Assembly (NCBI GenBank): GCA_003550565.1
Contig: PUKQ01000053.1
Span: 1 to 54,386 of the forward strand
Length of the DNA stretch: 54,386 nucleotides
Source: Syntrophomonadaceae bacterium
GTDB lineage: Bacteria > Bacillota > Dethiobacteria > DTU022 > PWGO01
Direction of reading: 5' to 3'
In this document: positions 15,584 through 47,739 of the stretch, one piece after another
Position numbering within the stretch: the stretch's first letter is position 1
Layout of the letters: every line of letters starts with the position of its first letter
Notes under the pieces: generated by a model
What the model was told of the DNA's origin: nothing
The model's input: only the letters and a program-made list of their open reading frames with translations
Database searches by the model: none
Position numbers and translations under genes: made by a program

Positions 15584-15819
15584 TTGATTTGGACTTTGCC
15601 ATTATTATAATTGCTATATCATACCAGTAACTACAAAAATATTCCCCTTCAAATAAGTTAAATTAGTTGCAAAAATGCACTTTGACTTAAAGGTATTGTC
15701 TTGCTACCCATAATTATTGGCTGCAACTTTCACTGTTTCAATCGTTAATCTTTAACTAAAATAATTATTGCTGTAATGGTTTCTGTTAGTAGTACAAAAA
15801 ATTGCGAGGAGGGAGGAAA

Positions 15820-16236: not shown

Positions 16237-16297
16237 AAGAAATGGAAGCTGTTTTATTTGTGGCGGGTTGCCTGATACTATTTAAGGATATGGGGGG

Positions 16298-18840: not shown

Positions 18841-18870
18841 ATAGAGGGGTTTGAAGAGGAGGAGTGTTTA

Positions 18871-24615: not shown

Positions 24616-25659
24616 ATGAAAAAAGGGATAACCAAACCGGTTCAAAAGAAAAAAGCGGCCAAACATGTAAGCGTATTACTGATATTCTTCATGGCTTTGA
24701 CGTTATTTTTTGTTTTGCTGCTGCCGGGATGTACCGGTCCGGAACAAGAAAATAAGCTTATAGAAGAAGAGAAAATTCCCATCCGCATGGCTTATCTTTA
24801 TAATGATCTTCACCAATTGGCCTATTATGTGGCTCAACAAAAAGGTTTCTACGAAGATGCCGGTTTGCAGGTGAAAGAAGCCGGAGTATACGGTTCCGGG
24901 GTGGAGCTAATGGCGGCTTTTCAAGCGGGCAGTCTTGATGCCGGTTATGTGGGGTTGGCGCCTGCTACCGTTGCCGTGGCCAATGGTAAGGCTGAAGTAA
25001 GTGTTGTGGCCCTGGCCAACCAGGTGGGTTCGGCTCTGGTGGTAAGGGATGGCCTGGAAGTAGAAGCGATTGCAGATCTTGAGGGACAAAGGGTGGCCGT
25101 CCCCAATCTTGGGACCGTGCAAGATTTTTTGCTCAACCGGGCCTTGGAAGAAGCCGGCCTAAAAACCACTGCGGTGGAGAAGACCTTTATTTCACCGTCG
25201 GAAATGATTTCCGGCATGGCTTCCGAGGGCATAGAAGCTTGTATAGCCTGGGAACCGTATGTTTCCAAGCTGGTGAACAGGGGGTATGGGCAAGTGCTAT
25301 TATGGTCTCATGAAATTTGGGAGAACCATCCCTGCTGTGTTCTGGCAGTCGATGAGGAATTTTTAAAAAATAACCGCGAGGCGGCAGCATCACTGGTAGA
25401 GGCCCACAATCGGGCTACGGATTTTATTTTGCAAAATAAAGAAGAGGCAAAGGAAATGGCAAAAGATTTTACCGGCCTCTCTGAGGATGTCGTAAAAGAG
25501 GCAATGGAAAATATTGAATTTACCAGCGAACTGGATGCCGAAGAAGCAGAAACATATGCCCGTTACCTGGTGAATCAGGGCTTGGTCGAATTAGAAGATA
25601 CCGCGGCATTTATGTCTGAATTTATCCATGAATCACTCCTGGAGGAGGGAATTAATTGA
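24616..25659 (+). CDS. ABC transporter substrate-binding lipoprotein, NMT1/SsuA/TauA-like
   Basis: Signal peptide with lipobox LLPGC. The periplasmic-binding fold pattern (GSLDAGYVGLAP.., GQRVAVPNLGTVQDF) is typical of the NitT/TauT family. Confidence 0.75.
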   Translation: MKKGITKPVQKKKAAKHVSVLLIFFMALTLFFVLLLPGCTGPEQENKLIEEEKIPIRMAYLYNDLHQLAYYVAQQKGFYEDAGLQVKEAGVYGSGVELMAAFQAGSLDAGYVGLAPATVAVANGKAEVSVVALANQVGSALVVRDGLEVEAIADLEGQRVAVPNLGTVQDFLLNRALEEAGLKTTAVEKTFISPSEMISGMASEGIEACIAWEPYVSKLVNRGYGQVLLWSHEIWENHPCCVLAVDEEFLKNNREAAASLVEAHNRATDFILQNKEEAKEMAKDFTGLSEDVVKEAMENIEFTSELDAEEAETYARYLVNQGLVELEDTAAFMSEFIHESLLEEGIN

Positions 25660-26408
25660 ACCGATGGTTCACCGTGTTATCTCCCCTGGCATTTATAATC
25701 ATCTGGCACGTGGCGGGCACTCTGGGGTGGCTGGGAGATACACCGCTGCCGGCAGAGGTGGCTGTGGCATTGGGCAATTTACTGCGGGGAGAAGACCCAT
25801 TTTTGGGGGAGCTTCTTCGAATTCATGTGGCTGTATCGCTGGTGCGTATTATGGCAGGGTTTGCCCTGGCCGCTCTTTGTGGCATAGGGCTTGGGTTGGC
25901 CATGGGGTGGTTTCCCACGGTGCAAATAGTGATGCGGCCCATTTTGGAAATGCTGCGGCCTATTCCTCCTTTTGCCTGGGTAGTGTTAGCTATTCTCTGG
26001 TTTAGTACCGGCAATGCGCCGGCTATATTTATAACCTTTTTGGGGGCATTTTTCCCGGTGGCGTTAAACACCACTGCCGGCGTAGAAGGAGTTAGTCCGG
26101 TTTTGCGTGAGGCGGCTTCTACCCTGGGAGCTTCTCGGTGGGATTCATTACGCATGGTGGCTATTCCGGCTGCTGTTCCCGAAATATTTACCGGGTTACG
26201 CATAGGGCTTGGAGTAGCCTGGATGAGCTTAATTGCAGCGGAAATGGTAGGAGTGGGAACGCGTGGATTGGGTCTCCTGATTGAAACATCAAAGATGGTC
26301 TGGAGGTTGGATTATGCAGTAGCAGGAATGGTGGTTATTGGATTGGTAGGTTTTTTTCTGGATTTTCTTATGCGCTGGTGGAGCGGATATTTACTGCGCT
26401 GGAGGTAG
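25656..26408 (+). CDS. ABC transporter permease (NitT/TauT family)
   Basis: 250 aa, six hydrophobic segments, and an EAA-like loop (REAASTLGASRWDSLRMVAIPAAVP). The TTG start overlaps the upstream stop. Confidence 0.85.
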   Translation: MNRWFTVLSPLAFIIIWHVAGTLGWLGDTPLPAEVAVALGNLLRGEDPFLGELLRIHVAVSLVRIMAGFALAALCGIGLGLAMGWFPTVQIVMRPILEMLRPIPPFAWVVLAILWFSTGNAPAIFITFLGAFFPVALNTTAGVEGVSPVLREAASTLGASRWDSLRMVAIPAAVPEIFTGLRIGLGVAWMSLIAAEMVGVGTRGLGLLIETSKMVWRLDYAVAGMVVIGLVGFFLDFLMRWWSGYLLRWR

Positions 26409-26414
26409 TTATAG

Positions 26415-27209
26415 ATGGATTCCCAAACAGTTATGAGAATAAAAAACCTTTCCAAAACATTTCCCGGTAGAAAAGGGCTTCCGGAAACGGAAGTCCTGGC
26501 GGGTTTGGATTTTAAAATTTTAGCGGATAAATTTGTATGTATTGTGGGGCCAACCGGTTGTGGAAAAACCACCCTGTTGCGTATCCTGGCCGGGTTAGAA
26601 ACTCCTTCCGCGGGCAATGTGGAATTGGGAGGGGAGGAAGTAAATGGCCCTAATGCCGAGGTGGGATTGGTTTTTCAGGAATTTGCCCTGTTCCCCTGGC
26701 GCAATGTTTTACAAAACGTAACTTTTGGACTGGAATTAACCCGCCGGAATCGCCGGGAAATAATAGAAGAAGCCAGGCATTACCTGGATATGGTAGGAAT
26801 GAGCGGGGTCGAAAAACACTATCCGCGAGAGCTTTCGGGGGGGATGAAACAAAAGGTGGCTATTGCCCGCACCCTTGCATTGCAACCGCGGGTGATCTTA
26901 ATGGATGAACCCTTTGGTTCCCTCGATGCGCAGGCAAGAAACCTGATGCAAGAATTTCTATTGGGTTTACAGGAACGCACCGGCGTGGCCGTGGTTTTTG
27001 TCACCCACAATGTAGATGAAGCAGTATTTCTTGGTTCGGAAGTGATTGTTTTTACAGCCCGCCCGGCAGTAATTAAAAAAGTTTATCATGTAGAATTGGC
27101 GCATCCCCGATGCCGAACCGGGGATAATTTTATTGCCTACAGGAGAGAAATTCTTGAATGCCTGGGTGAAGAAATTAAAACAGCAGAAGAAAATATATTT
27201 GCGGGGTGA
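26415..27209 (+). CDS. ABC transporter ATP-binding protein
   Basis: Walker A GPTGCGKTT, signature LSGGMKQKVAIAR, Walker B ILMDEPFGSLD. Confidence 0.92.
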   Translation: MDSQTVMRIKNLSKTFPGRKGLPETEVLAGLDFKILADKFVCIVGPTGCGKTTLLRILAGLETPSAGNVELGGEEVNGPNAEVGLVFQEFALFPWRNVLQNVTFGLELTRRNRREIIEEARHYLDMVGMSGVEKHYPRELSGGMKQKVAIARTLALQPRVILMDEPFGSLDAQARNLMQEFLLGLQERTGVAVVFVTHNVDEAVFLGSEVIVFTARPAVIKKVYHVELAHPRCRTGDNFIAYRREILECLGEEIKTAEENIFAG

Positions 27210-27219
27210 AATTTGAATC

Positions 27220-28737
27220 ATGTACACCAGAGATCTCAAAACCGAACTTCAAAGTTATGGCCTTCGCTTACCTACCGGAAATCTGAAGGGAAGAAAAGGG
27301 GGAGCCGGGCCTGCGGAAGGGGCAACTTTTTTGATGGGTAACACGGTTGTTAATGTGCCTTTTTTTAGCAGTTATGTGCAGCATTCCCCTTATTGGTTGA
27401 GTGGGCGTGGGGACTCTTCTTATGATCTCTGGTATAACGATTACCGTGTGGAAAAAATGCTGCCGCTGGCGCCTGCACGGGACTTTTACCATAAAAAGAC
27501 CGGGGACGGTTTTTCTTATGAAAAAATTGCCCTCATTCACGGGAAAGACTGCCTGGCCACTACCGTTATGCAAGATTGCATTTATCAGAGACTGAATGAG
27601 GGCTGCAGTTTTTGTGCTATTGAGTTGAGTTTACAAAGAGGGCTGACTATCAGGAGGAAAGAGCCCCAGCAGTTGGCGGAAGTTGCCCGGGAATCAATGC
27701 GTGAGGGAATAACGCATCTACTGCTTACCACCGGAACCTTACCACATAGAAAAGAAGAAGTGCAACACCTGTCAGCATGCGTGAAAGCTTTGAAAGAATC
27801 TACGGGCTTGCCTATACAGGTTCAGTGCTTACCTCCTGAAGATTTTGGTTTGTTGGGGATTTTAAAAGAAGCCGGCGTGGATACCCTGGGTTTGCATATA
27901 GAGAGCCTGGATGAAAATGTTCTGCAGCAGCATGCCCCGTCTAAAGCATCCCTGGGGTGGGAAGGTTTCCAAAATGTATGGTCCGAAGCAGTAAAATTAT
28001 GGGGAAGGGGGCAGGTAACCAGCTATATCATTATGGGCCTGGGAGAAAATTTGGACCGGAGCTTGGAACGTTTGGAAAAAATGGTGGAATTGGGTGTTTA
28101 TCCATACGTAGTTCCCCTGCGCCCTGTGCAAGGGACTATATTAGAAAACAAACTGCCGCCTTCTCCTTCTTTGATGAAACAGGTATATGAATATACTGCG
28201 GAACTACTGTCTGAAGGGGATATGTGTGCCGGGGAAATTGCCGCCGGCTGCGGACGGTGTCGGGCTTGTTCTGCCCTTCCTGACTTTGAGGATGTGGCTA
28301 TAAAAAAGCCTCAAACCACTTGCCGAACTATAGGCAATAAGGAGGAAAAAGCAATGGTTATGGCTCTGAGGCGGCGGGTATTTGTGGATGAACAGGGGCT
28401 TTTTGTGGATACCGATGAAGATGAATATGACCGCAGAGCTTTACACCTGGTGGCCAGTTGTAACAACCGCCTGGTTGGAACCGTTCGCCTCTACCACTGG
28501 GATAAAGGCATCTGGATGGGGGGGAGGCTGGCTGTTTCTCCCGATTATCGCCACAACGGTATAGCCCCGTTGTTGGTTAAAAAGGCGGTGGAATTGGCCC
28601 GTGAGAATGAAGCTTCAAAATTTATGGCCTGGGTGCAAGATCAGCATCAACAATTTTTTCTGCACTTGGGGTGGTGGTATACCGGTAGTAAGAAGCTTAT
28701 TGCCGGCAAGGAGCATTTGCTTATGCAGGCATTTTAA
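27220..28737 (+). CDS. fusion of a non-canonical radical-SAM-like domain (MSMEG_0568-like) and a C-terminal GNAT acetyltransferase (MSMEG_0567/Sll0786-like)
   Basis: 505 aa. N-terminal GRKGGAGP. A Cys triad C120-x8-C129-x2-C132 (CIYQRLNEGCSFC) takes the place of CxxxCxxC. TIM-barrel-like LLLTTGT..LGLHIES..IIMGLGE. A second cluster motif CGRCRAC. The GNAT part reads RRRVFVDEQGLF..LVGTVRLY..WMGGRLAV..YR. The family assignment is from memory. Confidence 0.65.
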   Translation: MYTRDLKTELQSYGLRLPTGNLKGRKGGAGPAEGATFLMGNTVVNVPFFSSYVQHSPYWLSGRGDSSYDLWYNDYRVEKMLPLAPARDFYHKKTGDGFSYEKIALIHGKDCLATTVMQDCIYQRLNEGCSFCAIELSLQRGLTIRRKEPQQLAEVARESMREGITHLLLTTGTLPHRKEEVQHLSACVKALKESTGLPIQVQCLPPEDFGLLGILKEAGVDTLGLHIESLDENVLQQHAPSKASLGWEGFQNVWSEAVKLWGRGQVTSYIIMGLGENLDRSLERLEKMVELGVYPYVVPLRPVQGTILENKLPPSPSLMKQVYEYTAELLSEGDMCAGEIAAGCGRCRACSALPDFEDVAIKKPQTTCRTIGNKEEKAMVMALRRRVFVDEQGLFVDTDEDEYDRRALHLVASCNNRLVGTVRLYHWDKGIWMGGRLAVSPDYRHNGIAPLLVKKAVELARENEASKFMAWVQDQHQQFFLHLGWWYTGSKKLIAGKEHLLMQAF

Positions 28738-28757
28738 TGCGGAAGGGAGGTGCTTAA

Positions 28758-29846
28758 ATGGCTGAAATTGTAGTGGTGGGAGCCGGGCTGGCCGGGTTAA
28801 CTGCTGCTTTTACATGCGCACGCCGGGGGCACAGGGTTACCGTTTGGGAACAATATAATCATATTGGCGGCATTCCGTATTCTCACCCGGCAGTGGATAT
28901 AACCCCCATGGAACCCACTGTATTAGGCGAAGTAATTGGCATGGATTTAGGGCCTCCCCAGATTGTACCTGCAAAAACGGTAGCGTTGTATATATACGGA
29001 AAACGTTATGAAACAGGTGGGGAACATCTTTCCTTGCAGGCGGTGGAAAGAGGGGAAAACCCCTATTCGCTGGATGTCTACCTTTACCAAAAGGCCTGCG
29101 AAGAAGGAGTTAAATTTGAATTTGGGCGGGAAATCAATAGCAACAGCATAGCTGAACTACCCCCTTATTCCATCATTGCCACCGGGTTAAACCCCGAGTT
29201 GTATCAAGCGCTGGAGTTGCCTTCTACCAATGTTTATGGTTACGTAGCCAAGGGAGAAAGCAATGAATCGCCCCGCGTTATCGGTTGGTTCGATGATTAC
29301 ACCCGTGATTATGCCTATTATGCTTCTTCTAACGGCATTACTTTTGGACTTTTGTTTGATCGTAAGCCCATGAATGAGTCGGTAAGGCAGCGTTGGGAAA
29401 AACAGCTTTGGGAACAGGAAGGAATAAAGTTTTCTTCCTGGCATCCACACGAAGGGATAGTTCCCATTAAAACCCCCACTAATCCTCAATTTTTCTGGAA
29501 GGATAAGATATTGGCGGGTACTTTTGCCGGAATGCAAGACCCCGTGATGCTTTTTGGAGTGCACGGGGCTTTATTGTCAGGAAAAATTGCGGCTTTAGCC
29601 GTGGATGATAAAGCCGGGGCCATGAGGCTTTTTCGACGGTTTACCTCTTTCTTCAAGTATTCGTGGATGGTGAAAAAAACAATTTTGGATATACCGCCGC
29701 ATCCGGTGAGAAAAAATTTGCTTAGGCCCATTATCGGGCTTTGGGAAAAATACCCCGAAGAATTGAAATTTAGTATAAATTTTGCCCTGGGAACGATTCC
29801 GGGCTTTAGAACTTTGGGAAAATACCGTAATTTAATTCCTGATTAA
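28758..29846 (+). CDS. FAD/NAD(P)-binding oxidoreductase (geranylgeranyl-reductase-like fold)
   Basis: N-terminal dinucleotide-binding motif IVVVGAGLAGLTAAFTCARRGHRVTVWE. 362 aa. Confidence 0.7.
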   Translation: MAEIVVVGAGLAGLTAAFTCARRGHRVTVWEQYNHIGGIPYSHPAVDITPMEPTVLGEVIGMDLGPPQIVPAKTVALYIYGKRYETGGEHLSLQAVERGENPYSLDVYLYQKACEEGVKFEFGREINSNSIAELPPYSIIATGLNPELYQALELPSTNVYGYVAKGESNESPRVIGWFDDYTRDYAYYASSNGITFGLLFDRKPMNESVRQRWEKQLWEQEGIKFSSWHPHEGIVPIKTPTNPQFFWKDKILAGTFAGMQDPVMLFGVHGALLSGKIAALAVDDKAGAMRLFRRFTSFFKYSWMVKKTILDIPPHPVRKNLLRPIIGLWEKYPEELKFSINFALGTIPGFRTLGKYRNLIPD

Positions 29847-29915
29847 TCTTTAATTAGGTATATAATAGCGGGCAAAATTAACTACTAAATATTATGAAAG
29901 GAGTGAAAAGGTTAA

Positions 29916-31265
29916 ATGGCATTTCGGGATTACTTTCAGGAGGATATGTATTACCGTCAAAATTCCGCAGAAATGAAAGATTTGCAGTTAAGGAAATTGA
30001 GGGAAAGGCTTAAAATCTATAGCGAAAGCTCTCCTTTGGTAAACATGCTTATAGAAAACACGGGGATTAAGCCTGAGGAAGTTACTATGGAACAGTACAA
30101 TGCGGCTGTGCCGGTAATTACTCAAAGAGACGCGGGAGGCAGTAGCTCGGGTTCTGATATTGTAGGAAACAGGGCCGCTCTTTCCGGAGTAGACGAACAG
30201 GATTTTGTCCTCCTTTGTTCTACTTCGGGAACTACAGGTGAGCCATCTCCTTATTTCCTTACCGAAGAAGACCTGCAAGTGACCGCGCATGGATTGGCAC
30301 GAGCTATGTGGATGATCAGCGGTGAATCTGAAGAGGAGCTGCGCAGTTTCCGAGCGGTGCAGGCTTTTGCCTTAAGCATGGTGGGGGCGGGGATGCCTAT
30401 GGTAGAAACCCTTATTCGCCTGGGCATACCGGTTATACCGGTGGGAGCCGAAGGAGGCACGGAACGTATTGTTTATTTTACCCAAAAGCTCCGCGGGAAC
30501 CTGCTTTTTTCCACTCCATCCCTGGCAGAACACATGGCGGAGGTGGAACCCCAAAAAGTTAAAGATTTGGGCTTTAAACGAATTGTTTGCGGCGCGGAGC
30601 CAGGTGCCGGTGTTATAGAAGTGAAGAAAAAGATGGAAGCAGACTACGGTTGTCCGGTAGTGGATGCGATGGGCTTGTTGTGGGGAATGGCCTGGGTATC
30701 CTGCGATCATCCCGAGTACGGAGGGATGCACTTTTTGGCCGATGATTTTCACATTATTCAACTGGTTGATCCGGAAACCCAGGAGAATATTCCTTTTGAA
30801 GACGGTGCTGTGGGACAGTTGGTGCTGGTGCCTTTGGTGGGGTCCCTTCCTCCCATGCGGGCTACTCCCGGTGATTCCGTTCAAGTTTTTACCCAGCCCT
30901 GTAAATGTGGAGTCCCGGGATGGCGGATGAAAGTGGTGGGACGCACAGATGACATGCTCAAAGTTAAAGGGGTAGTAGTATTTCCTGCTGCTATAGATGG
31001 TGTCATAGCCGCCTTTGTCCCGCAGGTGACAGGGGAATTTCGCATAACATTAGATGCTCCTCCCCCTAAAGTGGAGCCCCCCCTTAAATTAAAGGTGGAA
31101 TATGGGGAGAATGTGAAAGAAGAAAGATTGCAGGAACTTGCAGGTGAGATTGCGGAGGAAATGCATAATCGCTTGAAAGTAAGGCCGCAAATTACCTGGG
31201 TAAAGCCTATGAGCCTGGAGAGATCGACTTATAAAACCCGGTTTATAGAAAAAAATTATGAGTAA
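29916..31265 (+). CDS. phenylacetate-CoA ligase (PaaK)/F390-synthetase-like adenylate-forming enzyme
   Basis: 449 aa. AMP-binding motif CSTSGTTGEPSPYF. The C-terminal GRTDDMLKVKGVVVFP motif is typical of the PaaK family. Confidence 0.8.
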   Translation: MAFRDYFQEDMYYRQNSAEMKDLQLRKLRERLKIYSESSPLVNMLIENTGIKPEEVTMEQYNAAVPVITQRDAGGSSSGSDIVGNRAALSGVDEQDFVLLCSTSGTTGEPSPYFLTEEDLQVTAHGLARAMWMISGESEEELRSFRAVQAFALSMVGAGMPMVETLIRLGIPVIPVGAEGGTERIVYFTQKLRGNLLFSTPSLAEHMAEVEPQKVKDLGFKRIVCGAEPGAGVIEVKKKMEADYGCPVVDAMGLLWGMAWVSCDHPEYGGMHFLADDFHIIQLVDPETQENIPFEDGAVGQLVLVPLVGSLPPMRATPGDSVQVFTQPCKCGVPGWRMKVVGRTDDMLKVKGVVVFPAAIDGVIAAFVPQVTGEFRITLDAPPPKVEPPLKLKVEYGENVKEERLQELAGEIAEEMHNRLKVRPQITWVKPMSLERSTYKTRFIEKNYE

Positions 31266-31319
31266 AATATTAAATAGGTCTCAAAATAATGACCTTTTGC
31301 CAATCAAAAAAAGAAAGGA

Positions 31320-32141
31320 GTGATCGAAGTGCCCGAGATTTATGTAAATGATTGGCCGCCTCATGCGCCGGATGATTTGCATAGGCGGGAAGGTGTAGTT
31401 GAGGCGGCTCGCCTCATGCTCAATGCCGCCTACACCGCTCCGGTGGCAGGGGGTGTGGGGCAAATTGAAGCGGTGATTTTGTGGGGAAAGCATGAGCAAG
31501 AAAAGCTGGCCAAGAAAATGGAAGAGATGGCCGCCCATAATCAACATACCAGCAGGCGATTTAAATATGAGGCGGAAATGGTGCGAGAGTCGGATGCCAT
31601 CTTATTGATCGGCGATTACCTGGCTTCTACCTTACCCATTGATGCCGGCTGCGGATTATGCGGAGGTGAGCCTAACTGTTCTTTCCTTTACGAACGCAAA
31701 AAAGTAGTTGCGGGGGGGCAGATAGACCCGACGGAAAGAAACTTTGACAAACTTGTGGATGGGCCAATTTGCCTGGTTCGCTTTCAAGACATGTCTTATG
31801 CTGTGGGCAGCGCACTTTTTATGTCTACGCGCTTATTGGTGGATGCCAGGCCTTACTTTACGGTGGGAGCTGCCGGGCGCCAGTTAGGATATTGTTCGGA
31901 TTCTGGGGTAGTATGTGGAATCCTGATTGCTGCCCAGCAAAAAAATCCTTTTGTGGATATTCCCCAGGATTATCATGTGATTAACATGCGGCGCATGATT
32001 CAAAGTGTCAGGCACTGGTATATTATTAACCGCAATACTGCCGGAGATTATCGTTTCTTTGACCCGAGCGCCGACCTGGAAAAGGAAATGCTACAGCAGC
32101 AACAGGAAGAACAGGCGGAAAAGGAGGGGGATGAGGAATGA
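31320..32141 (+). CDS. DUF2148-like ferredoxin-domain protein (uncharacterised), acidic C-terminal tail
   Basis: 273 aa. Cys motif DAGCGLCGGEPNCSF, analogous to the CGACGF..C motif of the next ORF. Tail QQQQEEQAEKEGDEE. GTG 31329 is an alternative start. Confidence 0.5.
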   Translation: MIEVPEIYVNDWPPHAPDDLHRREGVVEAARLMLNAAYTAPVAGGVGQIEAVILWGKHEQEKLAKKMEEMAAHNQHTSRRFKYEAEMVRESDAILLIGDYLASTLPIDAGCGLCGGEPNCSFLYERKKVVAGGQIDPTERNFDKLVDGPICLVRFQDMSYAVGSALFMSTRLLVDARPYFTVGAAGRQLGYCSDSGVVCGILIAAQQKNPFVDIPQDYHVINMRRMIQSVRHWYIINRNTAGDYRFFDPSADLEKEMLQQQQEEQAEKEGDEE

Positions 32142-32998
32142 GTATTATACCGGTAAATGAAAAATTTACGGAAGAAACATTAATTCAGGTGGGTAGGCTT
32201 TGTGCCCAGGCGGTTTATAAAGCGCCCCAGCTGACGGGAAGGGTTAGCTTTACTTGCAACCTGGTAACCGGGGAAGACTTGAAGTATATTACGGAAGCCT
32301 TTCAAATCCTTTTCCGCCTTGAAATGTACCATTTACCCAGCCTTTTTTGTTACCGGGATGCTATGGATAAGGGAGAGCCGCTGGTCTTACTGCTGGTGGG
32401 CACTAAAGACCTTAATCATTCGGAGCTAAACTGGGATTGCGGTGCTTGCGGTTTTGACACCTGTGGGGAATTTAACCGCTATACCCGCAAAAAATTGAAG
32501 GAACCTTCTTATCCGGGAATGTTGCAGGGACAGGGGCCTTGCTGTGCCTGGAAGCTCATGGACTTTTCCCTTGCCAATGACTGGGCAGCAGCTGTGGCCT
32601 GGCAGCACAATGTTACCAACCGGGTAGAGGTAGCCAGCGGACAGGCTGCTCTGGCAGTAGGTATGATGGAAGGTTGCACTACAGTATTGGGCCTTCCCCT
32701 GGGGCCCCGTCATGAACTTTATTGGTACTCCCGCCGCGGTTTTGATACAGCTTTGCCTTATAAAAGATGGTTAAATACCATGCAGTTGAATTATCCTCAC
32801 CACTGGGGAACCTTTAAAGGATCGGGCCGCCCCGAGATTAAAAAAGGAAATCGCTGGTGGGAAGATATGTATGAAGCTAAACTGGAAGAAATGGATGTGC
32901 AGGAGCTTGTGGAAAGTAGAAAAGATGTAGAGGAGGATTTACGGGAGTTGAGGGAACAGCGCATGGCTGATCTTAAAAAACGCGCGGAACAGGATTAA
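32138..32998 (+). CDS. DUF2148-like ferredoxin-domain protein (uncharacterised)
   Basis: 286 aa. NWDCGACGFDTCGEF matches the motif I recall for the DUF2148/COG4739 family. ATGA-coupled to the upstream paralogue. Charged coiled tail. Confidence 0.55.
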   Translation: MSIIPVNEKFTEETLIQVGRLCAQAVYKAPQLTGRVSFTCNLVTGEDLKYITEAFQILFRLEMYHLPSLFCYRDAMDKGEPLVLLLVGTKDLNHSELNWDCGACGFDTCGEFNRYTRKKLKEPSYPGMLQGQGPCCAWKLMDFSLANDWAAAVAWQHNVTNRVEVASGQAALAVGMMEGCTTVLGLPLGPRHELYWYSRRGFDTALPYKRWLNTMQLNYPHHWGTFKGSGRPEIKKGNRWWEDMYEAKLEEMDVQELVESRKDVEEDLRELREQRMADLKKRAEQD

Positions 32999-33024
32999 AA
33001 ATAAAAAATTTAGGAGGGATTTTT

Positions 33025-33441
33025 ATGCCTGTTTTTCCGAGTTATGAATGGATGGAAACTTTGGTGGAGATGCTTAATGCTAACGAGGAATATAAAAAGG
33101 CGGCAGCCACTTACGAAGGTGTAATGGCTCTGTTGATTAAAGCGGAAGAGGGCAAATTAGAAGAAGACATGTTGGGTTATGTGCATCCTTATCATGGAAA
33201 GATTATTGATTATGGCATTTGGGATGATTTAGAAGGTAAAGATCCCATGTTTATCATCTATGCACCTTATTCAACGTGGAAAAGCGTGGTTAAGGGAGAA
33301 ATTGATCCTATGGGGGCTATAATGAAAGGAAAAATTAAAATCAAAGGAGATATGGCTCAACTGCTAAAAAGAACGCAGGGTTCCCAGATAATGATGGAGG
33401 CCATGAAACAATTAGACACCCAGTTTATTGATGAAACTTAA
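33025..33441 (+). CDS. SCP2 lipid-binding domain protein (paralogue of 15820-16236)
   Basis: 138 aa. YSTWKSVVKGEIDPMGAIMKGKIKIKGD, C-terminal DTQFIDET. AGGAGGG SD. Confidence 0.7.
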   Translation: MPVFPSYEWMETLVEMLNANEEYKKAAATYEGVMALLIKAEEGKLEEDMLGYVHPYHGKIIDYGIWDDLEGKDPMFIIYAPYSTWKSVVKGEIDPMGAIMKGKIKIKGDMAQLLKRTQGSQIMMEAMKQLDTQFIDET

Positions 33442-33448
33442 ATTTTGA

Positions 33449-34429
33449 TTGATCAGGTTTTCTGAACAAGGGGAGGAAAGAGTCATTTCGGGTCCTTTTT
33501 TAAAGCATTTAGCTCAGAAGTTAGAAAAACATACCGGGGTTGCCCGCAAACGTCCGGTGGGAGATCTTCTTAAAATTTTGCACCGGGGGAAGAGTTCAAA
33601 ACTTCCTGTGGACGACTGTGGGGTAATTCTTGATGATGGAGGTTACCTGCTTTTTACAGCAGATTCCCTGCAGGATTGGCTGTTGGAAGACCCTTACTTT
33701 GCGGGTTTTTGTGGGGTTAATGTCGTAGTGAACGATATTTATGCCATGGGTGGCGTGCCCCGGGCAGTGGTTGATTCTATTTATATGATTGAAGGCGAAA
33801 AAACATGGTTGCGCCTTCTGGGAGAAGGTATGCGAGATGCCTGTGAAAAATTCAACGTGGTTATGTCCGGAGGGCATCTGGATCCGGATGCCGGTTTTCG
33901 GGCGCTCAGTGTAAGCGGTATCGGTAAAGCAGAGCGGGTAATGTCTACCTTTGATGCCGAACCAGGAGATGCCGTGATGTTTGCCTTTGATTTAAACGGG
34001 AAATTGAGGGGCTCTTTTCCCATTTGGGATTCTTCTACCGGCACGGAAGAAGGAATTCTGCGGCGCAAATACCTGGAACTGGTGAAAATTGCTGAAGAGG
34101 GCCTGGCTACAGCTTGTCGAGATATAAGTAATGCCGGCTGTATCGGCACTCTGGGTATGATGATGGAGGCTTCTCAGACTGCTGCCTGGCTGGATTTAGC
34201 TGCTATTCCTGTTCCGAATAATTTATCCCTGGAAGAATGGATTTTTACTTATCCCAGTTATGGTTTCATTTTGACCGTACCGCTTGCTTTTGCTTCTTCC
34301 GTTGAAAATTCTTTTCGCCGGCAGGGTATTGCTGCGGTTCAGGTGGGCCGGGTGGTGGAAGGAAGGGGTGTTACCTTGGTGTGGCAGGGTGAGTCGGTGG
34401 AAACTTATAGTTCCGGTATTATTTTTTAG
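33449..34429 (+). CDS. AIR-synthase-related protein (PurM/ThiL/HypE superfamily; sll0787-like?)
   Basis: 326 aa. VDDCGVILDDGGYLLFTADSL..VVNDIYAMGGVP..MSGGHL is the N-domain pattern of the PurM-like superfamily. TTG start. Confidence 0.65.
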   Translation: MIRFSEQGEERVISGPFLKHLAQKLEKHTGVARKRPVGDLLKILHRGKSSKLPVDDCGVILDDGGYLLFTADSLQDWLLEDPYFAGFCGVNVVVNDIYAMGGVPRAVVDSIYMIEGEKTWLRLLGEGMRDACEKFNVVMSGGHLDPDAGFRALSVSGIGKAERVMSTFDAEPGDAVMFAFDLNGKLRGSFPIWDSSTGTEEGILRRKYLELVKIAEEGLATACRDISNAGCIGTLGMMMEASQTAAWLDLAAIPVPNNLSLEEWIFTYPSYGFILTVPLAFASSVENSFRRQGIAAVQVGRVVEGRGVTLVWQGESVETYSSGIIF

Positions 34430-34463
34430 TATGTTTTAAATTGTGATTAAGGGGGGGGAAGCC

Positions 34464-35648
34464 ATGGTGGGATTTGAGTTGAATGAGGAACAAAAGGCGC
34501 TTTGCCAAACCGTACATGATTTTGCTGAAAATGAAATAAGGCCGATAGCAGCTGAGATTGATCGCAGCATGAGTGATGAATTTCCCATAGAAGTAGTCCG
34601 TGAGGCCGCAAAACTGGGTTTTACCACGTTAATAATTCCCGAAAAGTATGGAGGTGGTGGCTTAGGTGATTTAGAGTTAGTCCTCTTGTGTGAAGAATTG
34701 GCCTGGGGAGATGCCGGTTTGGCTTCTACTATTGGAGGTTCCAACGGCCTGGGTGTTAAACCTATACTATTTGCCGGCACAGAGGCCCAGAAAGAAAAAT
34801 GGTTGGGTATGATCTGTGAAAGGGCCGAAGAACCTTTTTTAACTGCTTTTTGTGCTACGGAAGCGAGCGGTGGTTCGGACGTGATTTCAGAGGACCCGCG
34901 GGCAGGCATTCAAACTCTGGCTCAAAAAGACGGCTCGGATTACGTATTAAACGGAACCAAAACATTTGTCACCAATGGCGGTGTAGCCGGTCTATATGTT
35001 GTTTTTGCCAAGACCGATATTAATAAAGGCGCGTCTGCCGGGCTTAGCTGTTTTATCGTGCCGGCTGATACACCGGGAGTTTCTGTCGGGGAGCGTTTTG
35101 ATAAAATGGGACAGCGATTAAGCCCCACAACTGAACTCATCCTGGATAATGTTCGCGTTCCCGCAGATAATTTGCTGGGGGAAGAGGGAGATGGCATATA
35201 TATTGCTATTAATTTTCTTACCGGTGGAGGTTCGGCAGTGGGGGCTTTTGCGGTGGGTTTGGCCCGGGCAGCATATGAAGAGGCCCGCAAATACGCCCTG
35301 GAGAGAGTGCAGGGTGGAGTGCCTATTATTGAACATCAGGCTATTGGTTTTAAGTTGGCGGATATGTGCATGCAGATTGAAGCTGCCAGGCTCTTGACCT
35401 GGAAATCTGCCTGGGCCAACCAGGTAGATCCGGACAGCCGGATTGCAGCCATGACGAAAGTTTACTGTTCTGAAATGGTTCAGAAGGTTACCTATGATGC
35501 CGTGCAAATTTTTGGGGGTTACGGTTATATGAGGGATTATCCTGTGGAAAAGTACATGCGTGATGCCCGGCTTTTGCCCCTCTATGACCTTACTAACGAA
35601 TTATTGCGGGCTTTGAGTATCGTGCCTTTTATTGCCATGAAACCTTAA
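34464..35648 (+). CDS. acyl-CoA dehydrogenase
   Basis: Typical ACAD layout (LNEEQKAL.., CATEASGGSDV, FVTNGG, QIFGGYGYMRDYPVEKYMRDAR). The position of the YEGT catalytic Glu reads YDLT. The ORF is open from 34443, but the ATG at 34464 follows GGGGGGGAAG. Confidence 0.88.
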   Translation: MVGFELNEEQKALCQTVHDFAENEIRPIAAEIDRSMSDEFPIEVVREAAKLGFTTLIIPEKYGGGGLGDLELVLLCEELAWGDAGLASTIGGSNGLGVKPILFAGTEAQKEKWLGMICERAEEPFLTAFCATEASGGSDVISEDPRAGIQTLAQKDGSDYVLNGTKTFVTNGGVAGLYVVFAKTDINKGASAGLSCFIVPADTPGVSVGERFDKMGQRLSPTTELILDNVRVPADNLLGEEGDGIYIAINFLTGGGSAVGAFAVGLARAAYEEARKYALERVQGGVPIIEHQAIGFKLADMCMQIEAARLLTWKSAWANQVDPDSRIAAMTKVYCSEMVQKVTYDAVQIFGGYGYMRDYPVEKYMRDARLLPLYDLTNELLRALSIVPFIAMKP

Positions 35649-35705
35649 AAAAACAATAAGGAAGCATGAAGAGGGTTCTTTTGCTTCTTAGATAGAAAGG
35701 TGGGA

Positions 35706-36464
35706 ATGATTTTGAAGTTAGAAGGAAAAGTTGCCATGGTAACCGGTGCCGGCTCGGGTATAGGACGGGAGATATGCTGCCTTTTTTGTAAGGAAGGAGC
35801 TCACCTGGCTGCCCTTGATATTAACCGGGAAGGCCTGCAGGAGACTGTTAAAATTAGTGGAGGCGAAGAAAAAGACATATTGTCCCTGCAAGTGGATGTT
35901 ACTGATGTTCCGGAAGTAAAGGAGTCCGTGCAAAAAGTAGTGGAGAGGTTCGGTCACATAGATATCCTGGTCAACTGTGCCGGCATACAGCAATCAATAC
36001 CCTTAGGTTCTGTAACGGAAGAAGACTGGTATCGTACTGTGGATATAAACCTGAAGGGGACTTTTTTCGTTATCCAGCAGGTTTTTAAAGTTATGCGCCC
36101 TAAGCGCTATGGAAAAATAATAAGCCTTTCTTCTCTTTCGGAATCAAAGGGAGGATCGGCTCTAATGTCTGTATACTCGGCCTCCAAAGGAGGCATAGCT
36201 GCCCTTACCCGAGCTCTGGCTGTGGAGATGGGTGGTTCTAATATTAATATTAATGCTATTTGCCCGGGCTTTATTAATACGCCCATGACGGAGGGAGTTC
36301 TTGAAATCGAGGAGTTTAAAGAAATTGCCCTTGATCAAACTCCACTGGGGAAAATAGGTGAACCGGGTGATGTGGCTAAACTGGCATTGTTTCTCGCCTC
36401 TGATGATGCCTCCTTTATTACAGGCCAGGCAATTTTTGTAGATGGCGGGATGTCAATTGCTTAA
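35706..36464 (+). CDS. short-chain dehydrogenase/reductase (3-hydroxyacyl-CoA / 3-oxoacyl reductase type)
   Basis: TGAGSGIG cofactor motif, NCAG, catalytic S..YSASK, PGFINTPM. The ORF is open from 35700. Confidence 0.9.
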   Translation: MILKLEGKVAMVTGAGSGIGREICCLFCKEGAHLAALDINREGLQETVKISGGEEKDILSLQVDVTDVPEVKESVQKVVERFGHIDILVNCAGIQQSIPLGSVTEEDWYRTVDINLKGTFFVIQQVFKVMRPKRYGKIISLSSLSESKGGSALMSVYSASKGGIAALTRALAVEMGGSNININAICPGFINTPMTEGVLEIEEFKEIALDQTPLGKIGEPGDVAKLALFLASDDASFITGQAIFVDGGMSIA

Positions 36465-36484
36465 AGAAAGGAAGTGTTCTTCTT

Positions 36485-36934
36485 TTGACTACTAAATTAA
36501 ATTGGGATGGAGGCAAACTGGTTAATCCGGATTTTTTTCTCACCGGTGAAGATGGATCCGTGAGTTTGCGCGGAGGTGTTTGTGCTACCTGCAATAAGTA
36601 TTTCTTCCCTTATAAAGAGGTTTGCACAGTTTGTTTTCAAAAAACGGTAAAGGAAACTCCTTTATCTGGCAGAGGAAAGCTGGTTTCCTGGAGTGTTGCC
36701 AGTCAGCCTTCTATTATGGGGTTGGAATCACCGTATTGCTTTGGGTATATAGATCTGGAAGAGGGGGTGCGTATATATTCACTCCTGGAGGTAAAAGATA
36801 ATAATTTCGAAGTTCTTTACAAGGGAAAGGAATTGCAAATGACCATGGGTTTTTTGTACCAAAACATAACCGGAGAAGATATCTATACGTATAAATTTAC
36901 CCCGGTAGAAACAATAAACGGAGGAGGTGATTAA
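36485..36934 (+). CDS. DUF35 Zn-ribbon/OB-fold protein (thiolase partner, BbsA-like)
   Basis: 149 aa. The rubredoxin-like CATCNKYFFPYKEVCTVCF followed by an OB-fold region is typical of DUF35 proteins encoded next to SCP-x-type thiolases. Confidence 0.8.
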   Translation: MTTKLNWDGGKLVNPDFFLTGEDGSVSLRGGVCATCNKYFFPYKEVCTVCFQKTVKETPLSGRGKLVSWSVASQPSIMGLESPYCFGYIDLEEGVRIYSLLEVKDNNFEVLYKGKELQMTMGFLYQNITGEDIYTYKFTPVETINGGGD

Positions 36935-38102
36935 ATTGCGTAAAGTAGCGATAGTAGGAACAGGATTGGTTAAATTTGGCAATTATCCGGAAAGAGGAAT
37001 AAGAAAAATGGCGGAAGAAGTGCTTTTTGAAGCCTTAACCGATGCGGGTGCCCGACCTGAAGATATTCAGGTGGCTTATTGTGGTACTAACGGTTTTTCC
37101 AGTGATACTCCTGACATGCAAGGTCCCATTTCTTTTTCTCAAGTAGGCATAGCCGGCATCCCTATATTGCAATTAAAAAATGGCTGTGCATCCGGTTCTA
37201 ACGCATTCCGCGAAGCATGGATTTCTTTACAAAGCGGTTTATATGATGTAGCGCTGGTGCTGGGAATTGAAAAATTAAGCGCCCCTACTATGGAAATGAT
37301 TAAATTAGCGGCCAGCATGGGAGGTGGCGATGGAGAATTGGAAGGTTCCATGGGGTTTTTCCCACCGGGAATTTTTGCCATGTTTGCCCGTCATTATATG
37401 GATGATCTGGGGGTTACAAGGGAACAATTGGCAAAGGTCTCTGTGAAAAACCACTTCCATGCCACCTTAAATCCATATGCGCACTATCCTAAAAATGTAA
37501 CGGTAGAAGAAGTTCTTTCTTCCCGCCCGGTAACGTCACCGTTGAATACTTTGGATTGTTGTCCCATAGACGACGGTGCTGCTGCAGCAGTGTTGGTATC
37601 TGAGGATGTGTTGTCCAAGTTTAAACAGCGGCCTGTTTGGGTGGTCGGTTCTGCTCAAACCTCGGGAACTTATCCGGAGGAAGGCAATATTGGCGATACC
37701 GATACCACTCGCCGGGCAGTTGCCATAGCTTATGAAATGTCCGGAGTGGGGCCGACCGACATAGATGTTGCCGAAGTGCATGATTGTTTTACTCCGGCAG
37801 AACTCATGCATTACCGGGATCTGGGGTTCTGCAAGGACATACAGGAAGCTGCTTATTGGCTGGAAAAAGGCTACACGTATCTTGGCGGAAAGATACCGGT
37901 TAACACCAGCGGTGGATTGCTGGCAAAAGGACATCCACTGGGAGCTACGGGGGTGGCTCAAATATGTGAAATAGTGCAGCAACTGCGAGGCGAAGCAGGA
38001 GAAAGGCAGGTAGATAATGCCAGGGTAGGGCTAACGCACAACGGAGGAGGATTCAGGCAGGGTGATGTGGGTTCTGTTTGTGTCCACATTCTGCAAAAAT
38101 AA
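36927..38102 (+). CDS. thiolase-like protein, SCP-x / lipid-transfer (BbsB-like) type
   Basis: 391 aa. VAIVGTG.., active-site region NGCASGSNAF, C-terminal EVHDCF..NTSGGLLAKGHPLGATG. TTG 36936 behind GGAGGAGG is the likelier start. Confidence 0.85.
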   Translation: MIKLRKVAIVGTGLVKFGNYPERGIRKMAEEVLFEALTDAGARPEDIQVAYCGTNGFSSDTPDMQGPISFSQVGIAGIPILQLKNGCASGSNAFREAWISLQSGLYDVALVLGIEKLSAPTMEMIKLAASMGGGDGELEGSMGFFPPGIFAMFARHYMDDLGVTREQLAKVSVKNHFHATLNPYAHYPKNVTVEEVLSSRPVTSPLNTLDCCPIDDGAAAAVLVSEDVLSKFKQRPVWVVGSAQTSGTYPEEGNIGDTDTTRRAVAIAYEMSGVGPTDIDVAEVHDCFTPAELMHYRDLGFCKDIQEAAYWLEKGYTYLGGKIPVNTSGGLLAKGHPLGATGVAQICEIVQQLRGEAGERQVDNARVGLTHNGGGFRQGDVGSVCVHILQK

Positions 38103-38161
38103 AAAACAAAATAATCGTTTATTTTTTAGCAGCTATAAATGAGAAAGGGGAGTGGATTTTT

Positions 38162-38518
38162 ATGCCTTTTGCAGTGGAACCGTTGAAGTGTAATGGTTGT
38201 TCCCTGTGTGAAGTGGCCTGTAGTTATCATCGGGATGAGGCTTTCAGCTTGCTTTCCTCTTCCATTATGGTCTATCGGGCTGAAGAAAAGAAGAATTATT
38301 TCGGATTGATCATCAAATTTGAAGACACCCTACTACTTGGTCGCCCTGAGGGCGCAGAAGAAGTTGGCATGGCGGAAATGCAAAGTCAGGGAGGGGGCGC
38401 GTCTGCCAAGCCCATAATGATTCGGGAGGCTTGTGATGGCTGTGAAGATCTCGATGGGCCTTTGTGCGTTGCTTATTGCCCCACCGGCGCTTTGAGTAGA
38501 AGGGAGGCTGAAGTGTAA
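38162..38518 (+). CDS. small ferredoxin-like Fe-S protein
   Basis: 118 aa counted from the ATG behind AAAGGGGAG. CNGCSLCEVAC and CDGCEDLDGPLCVAYCP motifs. The ORF track extends it to 38078 without SD support. Confidence 0.7.
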   Translation: MPFAVEPLKCNGCSLCEVACSYHRDEAFSLLSSSIMVYRAEEKKNYFGLIIKFEDTLLLGRPEGAEEVGMAEMQSQGGGASAKPIMIREACDGCEDLDGPLCVAYCPTGALSRREAEV

Positions 38519-39855: not shown

Positions 39856-40005
39856 CAAAAAAAACCTGGTGAAGCGCATTAAGATGTAAGTGACTTAGGG
39901 ATAAAAAAATAAGGGCATTGCCTGACAGGTCAAATTGCCCCTGGTTCATTTCAATTATGGGTAATATGTATGATTTTGTATTTACTTTGCAGGAAGGTGA
40001 AGGGT

Positions 40006-47702: not shown

Positions 47703-47739
47703 ATAATTATGGAAATAATATGGAAAGGAAAGAAAAGTT

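Follow-up and report, generated by a model that had tools for sequence, protein, structure and literature searches.

The 54,386-nucleotide contig PUKQ01000053.1 of a Syntrophomonadaceae bacterium (hereafter the window, meaning the whole stretch of DNA analysed) carries a plus-strand operon in which a radical S-adenosylmethionine (SAM) domain is fused to a GNAT domain. The fusion gene, here g1, heads a string of seven open reading frames (ORFs), g1 to g7, which the ORF listing places at exactly the positions given by a first-pass annotation made from the sequence alone. The spacing, cysteine motifs and GNAT strings described there are likewise present. The intergenic gaps from g1 to g7 measure 20, 69, 54, -4, 26 and 7 nt, the negative value being the ATGA overlap of g4 and g5. 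The domain calls also hold: Radical_SAM and GNAT in g1, a Rossmann flavoprotein in g2, PaaK-type AMP-binding in g3, DUF2148 paralogues in g4 and g5, SCP2 in g6, and AIRS with AIRS_C in g7 (Table 1).

The seven genes had been taken for one conserved cluster, a nitrilase-less form of the Nit1C gene cluster. Comparison with other genomes argues otherwise: the string is in all likelihood a lineage-specific interleaving of two separately conserved gene sets. Module A centres on a trio of radical SAM, GNAT and AIR-synthase-like (AIRS) proteins, together with its anaerobic partners, and is represented in the string by g1 and g7. Module B has the DUF2148 pair g4/g5 at its core. Genes g2-g6 stand alongside the trio in 0 of 81 radical SAM-anchored loci outside the window lineage, and the fusion and AIRS genes in 0 of 84 DUF2148-anchored loci.

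The operon (15802-43318, plus strand) spans about 27.5 kb and roughly 27 genes, with a TetR gene in front, and all genes from the TetR gene to position 43318 lie on the plus strand. Its 3' end faces a convergent glycosyltransferase gene (43334-44527, minus strand). No intergenic terminator within it exceeds shuffle expectation, although the promoter and terminator scans, being at or below shuffle expectation, are weakly informative. An Rfam scan found no riboswitch tied to the operon. Three loci from independent assemblies (L001, L002 and L003) contain the gene string as well, so that it is not an assembly artefact: its order is identical in an NCBI assembly, a Logan SRA assembly (86-99% protein identity) and a third assembly (56-87%). 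GC content is even across its junctions.

Table 1. Coordinates of the operon, its upstream region and the cysteine motifs of g1 in the window
Feature	Position (nt)	Strand	Remarks
TetR-family regulator gene	14942-15583	+	TetR_N, 57 bits
Putative promoter, best promoter-like site before the operon	15584-15611	+	TTGATT-16-TATAAT, 10/12 matches
SCP2a, FAD-linked oxidase 1, CCG1, 118-aa ORF, FAD-linked oxidase 2	15802-20783	+	Pfam; assigned to upstream arm of module B
Aldehyde:ferredoxin oxidoreductase (AOR, 611 aa) and poly-ferredoxin (160 aa)	20959-23277	+	AFOR_N 234 bits, AFOR_C 402 bits; Fer4 families
HdrD/TfrB-like CCG-domain Fe-S protein (CCG2)	23418-24599	+	Pfam CCG, 119 bits; NCBIfam TfrB/LdhH-like; assigned as module A partner
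SsuA-type ABC importer (substrate-binding protein, permease, ATPase)	24616-27209	+	Pfam NMT1_2, BPD_transp_1; assigned as module A partner
g1	27220-28737	+	505 aa, radical SAM-GNAT fusion; assigned to module A
g1 variant radical SAM cluster motif C120-x8-C129-x2-C132 (CIYQRLNEGCSFC)	27577-27615	+	Invariant in 30 homologues
g1 C344-x2-C347-x2-C350 (CGRCRAC, residues 344-350)	28249-28269	+	Invariant in 30-sequence alignment
g2	28758-29846	+	362 aa, FAD/NAD-Rossmann flavoprotein; assigned to module B
g3	29916-31265	+	449 aa, PaaK-type acyl-CoA (AMP-forming) ligase; assigned to module B
g4	31320-32141	+	273 aa, GTG start, long-form DUF2148; assigned to core of module B
g5	32138-32998	+	286 aa, long-form DUF2148; assigned to core of module B
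g6	33025-33441	+	138 aa, SCP2 lipid/hydrophobic-ligand carrier; assigned to module B
g7	33449-34429	+	326 aa, TTG start, sll0787-like, AIR-synthase (PurM) superfamily; assigned to module A
Acyl-CoA dehydrogenase, short-chain dehydrogenase/reductase (SDR), DUF35 OB-fold protein, SCPx-type thiolase	34443-38102	+	Pfam; assigned to downstream arm of module B
Ferredoxin Fd2, short AOR-like protein (445 aa, AFOR_N only), 428-aa BPL_N-like protein	38078-41256	+	Pfam
HdrA2-like flavin/Fe-S protein, last operon gene	41288-43318	+	NF040770 HdrA2, 829 bits, below cut-off 1100

Family assignments of the seven proteins

Both halves of g1 belong to the families proposed for them. Residues 8-357 match NCBIfam TIGR04043 (MSMEG_0568 radical SAM) over the full length of the model at 353.6 bits (cut-off 303.7), and residues 368-504 match TIGR04045 (MSMEG_0567/Sll0786 GNAT) at 110.6 bits (cut-off 68.45). 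The protein also scores 154.4 bits against NF045502 'variant_rSAM' (cut-off 125) and 42.7 bits against PF04055 Radical_SAM (cut-off 29.5). The GRKGGAGP string quoted earlier occupies residues 24-31, and the quoted GNAT strings lie in the C-terminal part.

The cluster motif of g1 departs from the canonical CxxxCxxC, and a variant, Cx8CxxC, is conserved instead. Seven cysteines (C111, C120, C129, C132, C344, C347 and C350) are invariant in an alignment of 30 sequences with 41-89% identity and so do not reflect chance. Cx8CxxC is found in 4/4 homologues of the window lineage, 30/33 from anaerobes and 7/7 from archaea; the Proteobacteria homologues carry Cx9CxxC (22/22). The late CxxCxxC is seen in every lineage group. 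C344, C347 and C350 make up a probable auxiliary Fe-S cluster motif, with C111 possibly its fourth ligand.

An AlphaFold2 model of g1 built on the 30 homologues has a predicted local distance difference test (pLDDT) score of 91.4. In Foldseek searches of the PDB the GNAT half retrieves YjcF (1q2y), SACOL1063 (5jph) and ElaA, with a template modelling (TM) score of about 0.9 on the target, and thus resembles small acyl-CoA N-acyltransferases. The consensus CoA-binding motif R-x-x-G-x-G/A is kept in the alignment. The radical SAM half retrieves BioB, human lipoyl synthase (LIAS), NifB, PylB and ThiH with a probability of 1.00; g1 itself is neither BioB nor LipA.

To our knowledge, Elp3 is the only characterised enzyme type whose single chain carries first a radical SAM and then a GNAT domain, the domain order of g1. 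No Elp3 appeared among the NCBIfam matches of g1, in a phmmer search of the PDB (E <= 0.01) or among the top 50 Foldseek matches, and the three resources place g1 in no other characterised radical SAM family. The two proteins are related at superfamily level only: they differ in cluster motif and N-terminal domain, and g1 has a PurM-like partner.

For g7, which consists of the Pfam domains AIRS and AIRS_C, the suggested relationship to sll0787 stands as to the nearest family. TIGR04049 (sll0787 AIR-synthase-like) is the best NCBIfam match at 263.2 bits, under the cut-off of 321.3. Identity to the AIRS genes that adjoin radical SAM and GNAT genes at other loci is 34-41%. Against methan_mark_2 it scores 218.7 bits. 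The scores against thiL (65.8, cut-off 184), selD (53.3, cut-off 125) and PurL (33, cut-off >500) leave g7 far under the equivalog cut-offs of ThiL, SelD and PurL, and PDB matches reach only E ~1e-8; g7 was rejected as any of these three, and is likewise not a ThiL/HypE/SelD protein in the sense considered by the first-pass annotation. The TTG start at 33449 gives the 326-aa product, to which the sll0787 model aligns from residue 18. Gene callers picked a shorter, 290-aa product in L001 (16338) and L002, and the N-terminus of this protein is probably under-called in public annotations.

Only residues 1-40 of g2 match known families, through an FAD/NAD Rossmann motif, and its PDB match is likewise to the Rossmann motif only. 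The earlier reading of g2 as the Nit1C flavoprotein (MSMEG_0569) fails: g2 has no match to TIGR04046 and travels with the DUF2148 module, its homologues (34-39% identity) lying beside a DUF2148 pair in L086, L101, L104, L105, L109 and L110.

The ligase g3 scores 115.4 bits against the PaaK model TIGR02155 (cut-off 646.3) and 146 against NF041878 (cut-off 700). Its PDB matches are 4r1l (1.8e-34) and the 2-hydroxyisobutyryl-CoA synthetase 6hdw (3.4e-29). On these scores g3 is predicted to be a PaaK-fold relative that fails the equivalog level of phenylacetate-CoA ligase PaaK. The SCP2 protein g6 scores 37.9 bits against PF02036.

Both g4 and g5 match DUF2148 (PF09918) at 55.8 and 47.4 bits, respectively (cut-off 25). 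They are distant paralogues (23% identity, E 1e-5) whose cysteine motifs align; within the g4 family C111, C114 and C151 are invariant and C120 nearly so. A sequence search of the PDB with g4 gave no match. Its AlphaFold2 model (pLDDT 73.8) resembles FMN nitroreductases in Foldseek (3gfa, 2ifa and 3e39; E ~1e-4, TM 0.4-0.55) and leaves unmodelled an insert that holds four conserved family cysteines. Unlike other proteins of these families, g4 and g5 are of a long form (260-290 aa) with this conserved four-cysteine insert and always occur as an alpha/beta pair in acyl-CoA operons. Nitroreductases are obligate dimers. Since g4-like and g5-like genes are also always adjacent, g4 and g5 are probably a nitroreductase-fold alpha/beta heterodimeric oxidoreductase, with FMN and a [4Fe-4S] cluster as its likely cofactors. 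We found no characterised DUF2148 member, and DUF2148 is absent from the searchable literature.

The two gene sets in other genomes

The distribution of the trio was followed in 85 radical SAM-anchored loci, 80 from a one-genome-per-species scan and five fetched earlier, whose neighbouring ORFs were clustered without reference to the window genes. More than 1,300 homologues of g1 exist, mostly from Desulfobacterota, about 505 aa long and 41-46% identical; only three closer clusters were found, at 89, 56 and 52% identity. The order radical SAM, GNAT, AIRS is universal across loci. AIRS lies no more than 800 nt from the radical SAM/GNAT genes in 43/44 loci outside the window lineage, and no more than 150 nt in 33 of them.

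The radical SAM and GNAT genes are fused in 19/31 anaerobe loci and in 0/22 proteobacterial or actinobacterial loci; of the latter, 12 have separate genes and six a GNAT-AIRS fusion. Spans in tblastn had suggested radical SAM-GNAT fusions in Proteobacteria too; ORF-level analysis ruled these out. Because either radical SAM-GNAT or GNAT-AIRS fusions occur in different phyla, the three proteins may be read as one three-part enzyme, on Rosetta-stone evidence.

The trio keeps different company in the two groups. In 40 proteobacterial or actinobacterial loci its partners are the MSMEG_0569 flavoenzyme (23 loci), a MocR-like regulator (22), MSMEG_0572 (18), the Nit6803 nitrilase (16), the MSMEG_0565 glycosyltransferase (14) and MSMEG_0570 (13). 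None of 35 anaerobe loci has a nitrilase, 0569, 0572, 0570, 0565 or MocR-like partner; they have a CCG protein (19 loci), an ABC importer (12-17), a BPL_N-like protein (14) or the Fd2/AOR-like genes (3-4). Judged by gene content, what stays constant from one bacterial group to the next is the radical SAM-GNAT-AIRS trio, which is thus the invariant core, and not the nitrilase. The nitrilase-free radical SAM-GNAT form is the rule for the anaerobic clade and is widespread, mostly in Desulfobacterota. The earlier view that a nitrilase-less fusion was peculiar to the window is thereby overturned, and public databases already annotate the fusion automatically, under names such as 'radical SAM protein (TIGR04043 family)/putative N-acetyltransferase (TIGR04045 family)' or, at the anaerobe loci, 'MSMEG_0568 family radical SAM protein'. 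The trio's conserved anaerobe partners, the SsuA-type ABC transporter and the CCG/HdrD-like and BPL_N-like proteins, are all encoded in the window, but beyond the coordinates given in the first-pass annotation.

Two arrangements recur among the anaerobe loci. Type I runs [Fd, short AOR-like], BPL_N-like, cytochrome c, cytochrome b, FAD-oxidase, CCG, substrate-binding protein, permease, ATPase, [FMN reductase], radical SAM-GNAT, AIRS. Type II runs FAD-oxidase, CCG, two unknowns, MtaA/CmuA methyltransferase, arginase-family protein, CoA-acylating methylmalonate-semialdehyde dehydrogenase (MMSDH), radical SAM-GNAT, AIRS. Type II loci (L004, L007-L009, L018, L020 and L042) have the MtaA/CmuA, arginase-family and MMSDH genes directly upstream of the fusion, and these neighbours give hints of a methylated, guanidino-type or 3-oxo-acid substrate. 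Acyl-CoA-forming enzymes near the trio comprise the MMSDH of Type II, Acs/PrpE-like ligases (11 loci and L170) and, in the window, g3.

Archaeal radical SAM homologues (ANME-1, Ca. Alkanophaga, Methanophagales and Bathyarchaeia; L036, L045, L047, L050, L053, L061 and L069) are 43-46% identical, keep Cx8CxxC and stand without GNAT and AIRS. Six of the seven genes lie directly downstream of an HcyBio-CBS gene (homocysteine biosynthesis, sulfur incorporation).

The window locus shares with the Desulfobacterota-type loci the fusion architecture, the cysteine motifs and the partners (SsuA-type importer, CCG/HdrD-like, BPL_N-like, Fd with short AOR-like). It differs in that AIRS directly follows the fusion in those loci, whose fusion proteins are 41-46% identical to g1 and which have no ligase, DUF2148, SCP2 or beta-oxidation genes. 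The membrane cytochromes c and b of Type I and the MtaA, arginase-family and MMSDH genes of Type II are absent from the window. We found no publication on these nitrilase-less radical SAM-GNAT and AIRS loci.

The Nit1C cluster is said to go back to Podar and co-workers in 2005. It corresponds to nitBCDEFGH of Pseudomonas pseudoalcaligenes/oleovorans CECT 5344, to Synechocystis sll0783-0787 and to M. smegmatis MSMEG_0565-0572. In these terms g1 combines a NitD-type radical SAM protein with a NitE-type GNAT, both above cut-offs, and g7 is NitF-like. The other components are missing. In tblastn against the 54-kb window, the L031 nitrilase used as reference (570 bits to TIGR04048) gave a best E of 0.47, confirming the reported absence of a nitrilase; a reference MSMEG_0569 from L058 (653 bits to TIGR04046) gave no match there, and MSMEG_0572/Sll0783, MSMEG_0570 and MSMEG_0565 gave E > 0.9. 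Positive controls ranged from 1e-47 to 1e-122. The convergent glycosyltransferase gene was rejected as an MSMEG_0565 type, having no match to TIGR04047.

Further contrasts with Nit1C lie in the layout. There the order radical SAM-GNAT-AIRS is contiguous, whereas AIRS is displaced to 4712 nt beyond the end of g1 in the window (the distance here and in L001 and L002 is 4.7-4.8 kb); the proteobacterial and actinobacterial genes are separate or GNAT-AIRS fused, whereas the window fuses radical SAM and GNAT; the proteobacterial motif is Cx9CxxC, whereas the window has Cx8CxxC; and the window setting is an anaerobic catabolic operon. With two or three of eight Nit1C components, the locus should not be filed as Nit1C. 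It is best described as an anaerobic, nitrilase-free variant of the Nit1C core inside a DUF2148-type acyl-CoA operon. The searchable literature on Nit1C covers the nitrilase/cyanide aspect only, with nothing on MSMEG_0568, so that the chemistry of the set, as the first-pass annotation stated, is still undescribed there. Nit1C is tied to cyanide-nitrogen assimilation in Pseudomonas (PMC11049912, PMC7815647), and what its radical SAM, GNAT and AIR-synthase-like proteins do is still undefined (PMC11049912).

Module B has a distribution of its own. In tblastn of all operon genes against the 85 radical SAM loci, g2-g6 and the acyl-CoA dehydrogenase, DUF35 and thiolase genes were found in L001-L003 only, all of the window's own lineage. 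For the long-form DUF2148 proteins there are about 100 relatives (43-59% identity), and 80 of the 84 DUF2148-anchored loci come from a metagenome scan. Among 43 long DUF2148 loci the partner gene is adjacent in 43, with thiolase in 26, ligase in 16, acyl-CoA dehydrogenase in 14, SDR in 14 and DUF35 in nine; neither hydratases nor electron-transfer flavoproteins are among the frequent partners of the pair.

Two loci, L086 and L101, hold the whole module without the trio. L086 has a g2-like protein (36% identity), DUF2148 alpha (59%) and beta (42%), SCP2 (47%), ligase (44%) and DUF35, and no trio. L101 reads FADox1-CCG1-FADox2-g2-g4-g5-SCP2-ligase-DUF35-thiolase...Fd2-SDR (FADox being FAD-oxidase), which is the window operon minus the AOR-Fd1-CCG2-ABC-fusion block and minus AIRS. 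In the window that block sits between FADox2 and g2, and AIRS follows SCP2. Because they are absent from the L101 operon, AOR and poly-ferredoxin appear to have come with or alongside the module A block. The g6-type SCP2 gene follows the DUF2148 pair in L086 and L101, its position in the window, and in L101 and L133 the string FADox1-CCG1-FADox2 immediately precedes g2-like or DUF2148 genes. In L088 (Syntrophobacteraceae) genes for acyl-CoA dehydrogenase, the DUF2148 pair, ligase, thiolase and SDR come before those for ferredoxin and AOR.

In L087, L122 and L123 DUF2148 pairs are flanked by CoA-transferases on one side and by two arylsulfotransferase-family genes on the other. Enoyl-CoA hydratases and 3-hydroxyacyl-CoA dehydrogenases accompany them, a context that differs from the ligase/SCP2 type.

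The interleaved arrangement was seen only in the window lineage, at 56% identity or more: L003, with a 56% relative of g1, keeps the window order, and L170, with the 52% relative, has a Type-I-like context and no module B. At least two rearrangements were needed to produce it. Co-localisation of the seven genes, on which the single-cluster reading depended, thus breaks down outside the lineage and is retained within it (L001-L003).

A proposed composite pathway and its alternatives

On family assignment and neighbourhood, we assign to module A g1, g7, the upstream SsuA-type importer and the HdrD-like CCG protein; the downstream Fd2, AOR-like and BPL_N-like genes probably belong there as well. 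Module B would be g2-g6 together with the flanking FAD-oxidase/CCG and acyl-CoA dehydrogenase-SDR-DUF35-thiolase genes. We favour, with moderate confidence, a reading in which the two modules are interleaved in one anaerobic degradation operon and work by the mechanisms set out below. The specific chemistry proposed for each is put forward tentatively.

In module A the radical SAM, GNAT and AIRS proteins would act as one three-part enzyme. We favour an enzyme that uses acyl-CoA because the GNAT CoA motif is kept and the trio repeatedly has an acyl-CoA-forming enzyme for a neighbour. The acyl-CoA would be bound by the GNAT domain. The radical SAM domain, with Cx8CxxC as ligands of its SAM cluster and CxxCxxC as those of an auxiliary cluster, would make a 5'-deoxyadenosyl radical for hydrogen abstraction. 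PurM-superfamily enzymes generally use ATP to activate a carbonyl oxygen, and the PurM-like subunit may likewise spend ATP in this way. The substrate could be an imported solute or the acyl-CoA itself. In Elp3, the enzyme of tRNA U34 carboxymethylation, such radical chemistry on an acyl-CoA held by a GNAT domain has a precedent.

In module B, g3 would turn a bulky hydrophobic carboxylate into its CoA ester, to be carried by SCP2, and the acyl-CoA dehydrogenase, SDR and DUF35-thiolase would degrade the acyl-CoA. PaaK-type ligases and DUF35/SCPx-thiolase modules are known from anaerobic toluene degradation (BbsAB) and from steroid side-chain degradation (Ltp2-ChsH2). The window resembles these pathways in its PaaK-fold ligase, acyl-CoA dehydrogenase, SDR, DUF35 and SCPx-type thiolase, and SCP2 carrier. 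It differs in having neither enoyl-CoA hydratase nor electron-transfer flavoprotein among the operon genes, as judged by Pfam and NCBIfam domain scans, and in having the DUF2148 pair and the g2 flavoprotein instead. The putative g4/g5 FMN/Fe-S heterodimer may perform the missing redox or hydration-equivalent step.

The modules are probably coupled in the window lineage, where an aldehyde would be oxidised to the acid by AOR and g3 would supply the acyl-CoA. A bolder version, which we regard as unlikely as it stands, has the trio recruited as an integral step of an anaerobic hydrophobic-carboxylate pathway. The trio would then use the acyl-CoA product of g3 as substrate or co-reactant in an ATP-assisted radical reaction, and the DUF2148 alpha/beta pair would be a new FMN/[4Fe-4S] enzyme class replacing a hydratase/electron-transfer step.

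Several points count against the interleaved two-module reading and its mechanisms. Every mechanistic step and substrate assigned to the modules is a prediction. The neighbourhood samples comprise up to 80 loci per scan, mostly metagenome-assembled genome (MAG) or metagenome contigs, many of them short. The order is conserved down to 56% identity, and the seven genes could form one pathway in this lineage; a composite origin does not exclude a single function. An Elp3-like radical attack on acyl-CoA is an architectural analogy only, the radical SAM half being nearer in structure to BioB, LipA, NifB, PylB and ThiH. Not only does g7 miss the sll0787 cut-off, it scores nearly as high against methanogenesis marker 2. 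Finally, the DUF2148 fold assignment is modest, given the pLDDT and TM values above and a cysteine-rich insert that is unmodelled.

The strongest competitor, although doubtful, is a single dedicated Nit1C variant into which the ligase, Fe-S proteins and SCP2 were recruited, all seven proteins acting on one carboxylate. It would account for the tight spacing on one strand, the lack of internal terminators above chance and the order kept in the 89% and 56% relatives, and the recurrence of acyl-CoA-forming enzymes near the trio makes a ligase beside a GNAT functionally sensible. What it leaves unexplained is that neither gene set accompanies the other outside the lineage (0/81 and 0/84 loci), that L101 and L086 have complete module B without the trio, that g2 is not the Nit1C flavoprotein and that the trio's conserved anaerobe partners lie outside the seven genes.

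Somewhat less probable again is a scavenging system in which the trio and the SsuA-type importer obtain nitrogen or sulfur from an imported compound while module B burns the carbon skeleton. The NCBIfam family names cite a nitrogen-starvation response, and the cyanide-nitrogen assimilation reported for Nit1C in Pseudomonas (PMC11049912, PMC7815647) is of the same kind; Type II loci add an arginase-family protein, aldehyde dehydrogenases and the MtaA/CmuA methyltransferase. The importer's substrate-binding protein passes the cut-off of the sulfonate-type family TIGR01728 SsuA_fam (167 bits against 163.5), but by only 3.5 bits. The window shows no recognisable nitrilase, amidase or desulfonating enzyme, and the regulator in front of the operon is of the TetR family, typical for carbon and lipid catabolism, and not a nitrogen or sulfur regulator.

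It is improbable, to a slightly greater degree, that the trio is not catabolic and serves as a cofactor or metal-ligand maturation system for the AOR-like, CCG/HdrD-like and BPL_N-like proteins. The structural neighbours of the radical SAM half are cofactor builders, the second cysteine cluster motif is conserved, the nearest characterised relatives of g7 are ThiL, SelD and PurL (with 218.7 bits to methanogenesis marker 2), and in anaerobes the trio stands beside Fe-S, tungstopterin-type and cytochrome proteins. Yet the 40 proteobacterial and actinobacterial loci pair the trio with nitrilase, flavin monooxygenase and glycosyltransferase and not with such metalloproteins; a dedicated solute importer is conserved beside it; and a GNAT with an intact CoA-binding motif would be unusual in a maturase.

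An assembly chimera or a meaningless chance juxtaposition, which a MAG/metagenome-type contig and at least two rearrangements might bring to mind, has next to no likelihood given the same order in three assemblies at two levels of protein identity and the even GC content across the junctions.

Flanking genes and wider significance

The operon holds three FAD-oxidase/CCG-type pairs or relatives. Its 118-aa ORF (18871-19227) encodes a partial FAD_binding_4 N-terminus and has its last 4 nt in common with the beginning of the gene for the 519-aa FAD oxidase. It stays separate in L001 (117 aa) and L003 (111 aa), and may represent either a conserved leader ORF or one part of a split subunit. The 428-aa BPL_N-like protein has a weak BPL_N match and no NCBIfam or PDB match. 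The mini-module of Fd2, AOR-like and BPL_N-like genes also occurs in L011, L034, L041, L095 and L170; it accompanies the trio at some loci and, at L095, a DUF2148 pair.

Downstream of the operon, positions 45084-53677 (plus strand) hold two divergent acyl-CoA dehydrogenase-like genes, genes for two proteins (223 and 602 aa) without a Pfam or NCBIfam match, a BzdN/BcrC/HadC-like and HadB-like pair (double-cubane-type reductase or dehydratase) and a BcrAD/BadFG ATPase gene. By family membership this set is a predicted ATP-dependent acyl-CoA reductase/dehydratase system beside the operon. Upstream of and outside the TetR operon lies a third GlcD-like FAD-oxidase and CCG/HdrD-like pair (10057-12614), so that the window as a whole contains three paralogous FAD-oxidase/CCG sets; a gene for an MtaB-type methylthiotransferase (12826-14169) follows this pair. 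A c-di-GMP-I riboswitch (7595-7683, plus strand; 86.9 bits, gathering score 35) directly precedes a gene for a 668-aa GGDEF and phosphodiesterase-type protein (7799-9805), and a second GGDEF gene lies at 2176-3390 (minus strand). A BCCT betaine/carnitine/choline transporter gene (5096-6778), a tRNA gene (4929-5002) and a citrate synthase gene (777-2075), all on the minus strand and upstream of the operon, are ordinary flanking genes that show no obvious connection with it.

Anaerobes carry a large nitrilase-free form of the trio with partners of its own: an importer and HdrD-like, FAD-oxidase, aldehyde-oxidising and acyl-CoA-forming enzymes. This form moves the question from nitrile and cyanide chemistry to acyl-CoA-linked radical chemistry and gives concrete test systems. 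The window lineage is the sole case seen of the trio inside an acyl-CoA degradation operon, which leaves fewer candidate substrates. A second uncharacterised unit has also been defined, the paired long-form DUF2148 proteins, which are widespread in anaerobic acyl-CoA operons without a recognisable hydratase. Should the trio indeed have been recruited into a hydrophobic-carboxylate pathway, it would be a general acyl-CoA-dependent radical enzyme whose link to nitrilase in aerobes is secondary, and this pathway would offer its first experimentally tractable substrate class. The main value of the comparison is that it reframes which genes form the Nit1C core, in contexts that make its chemistry testable.

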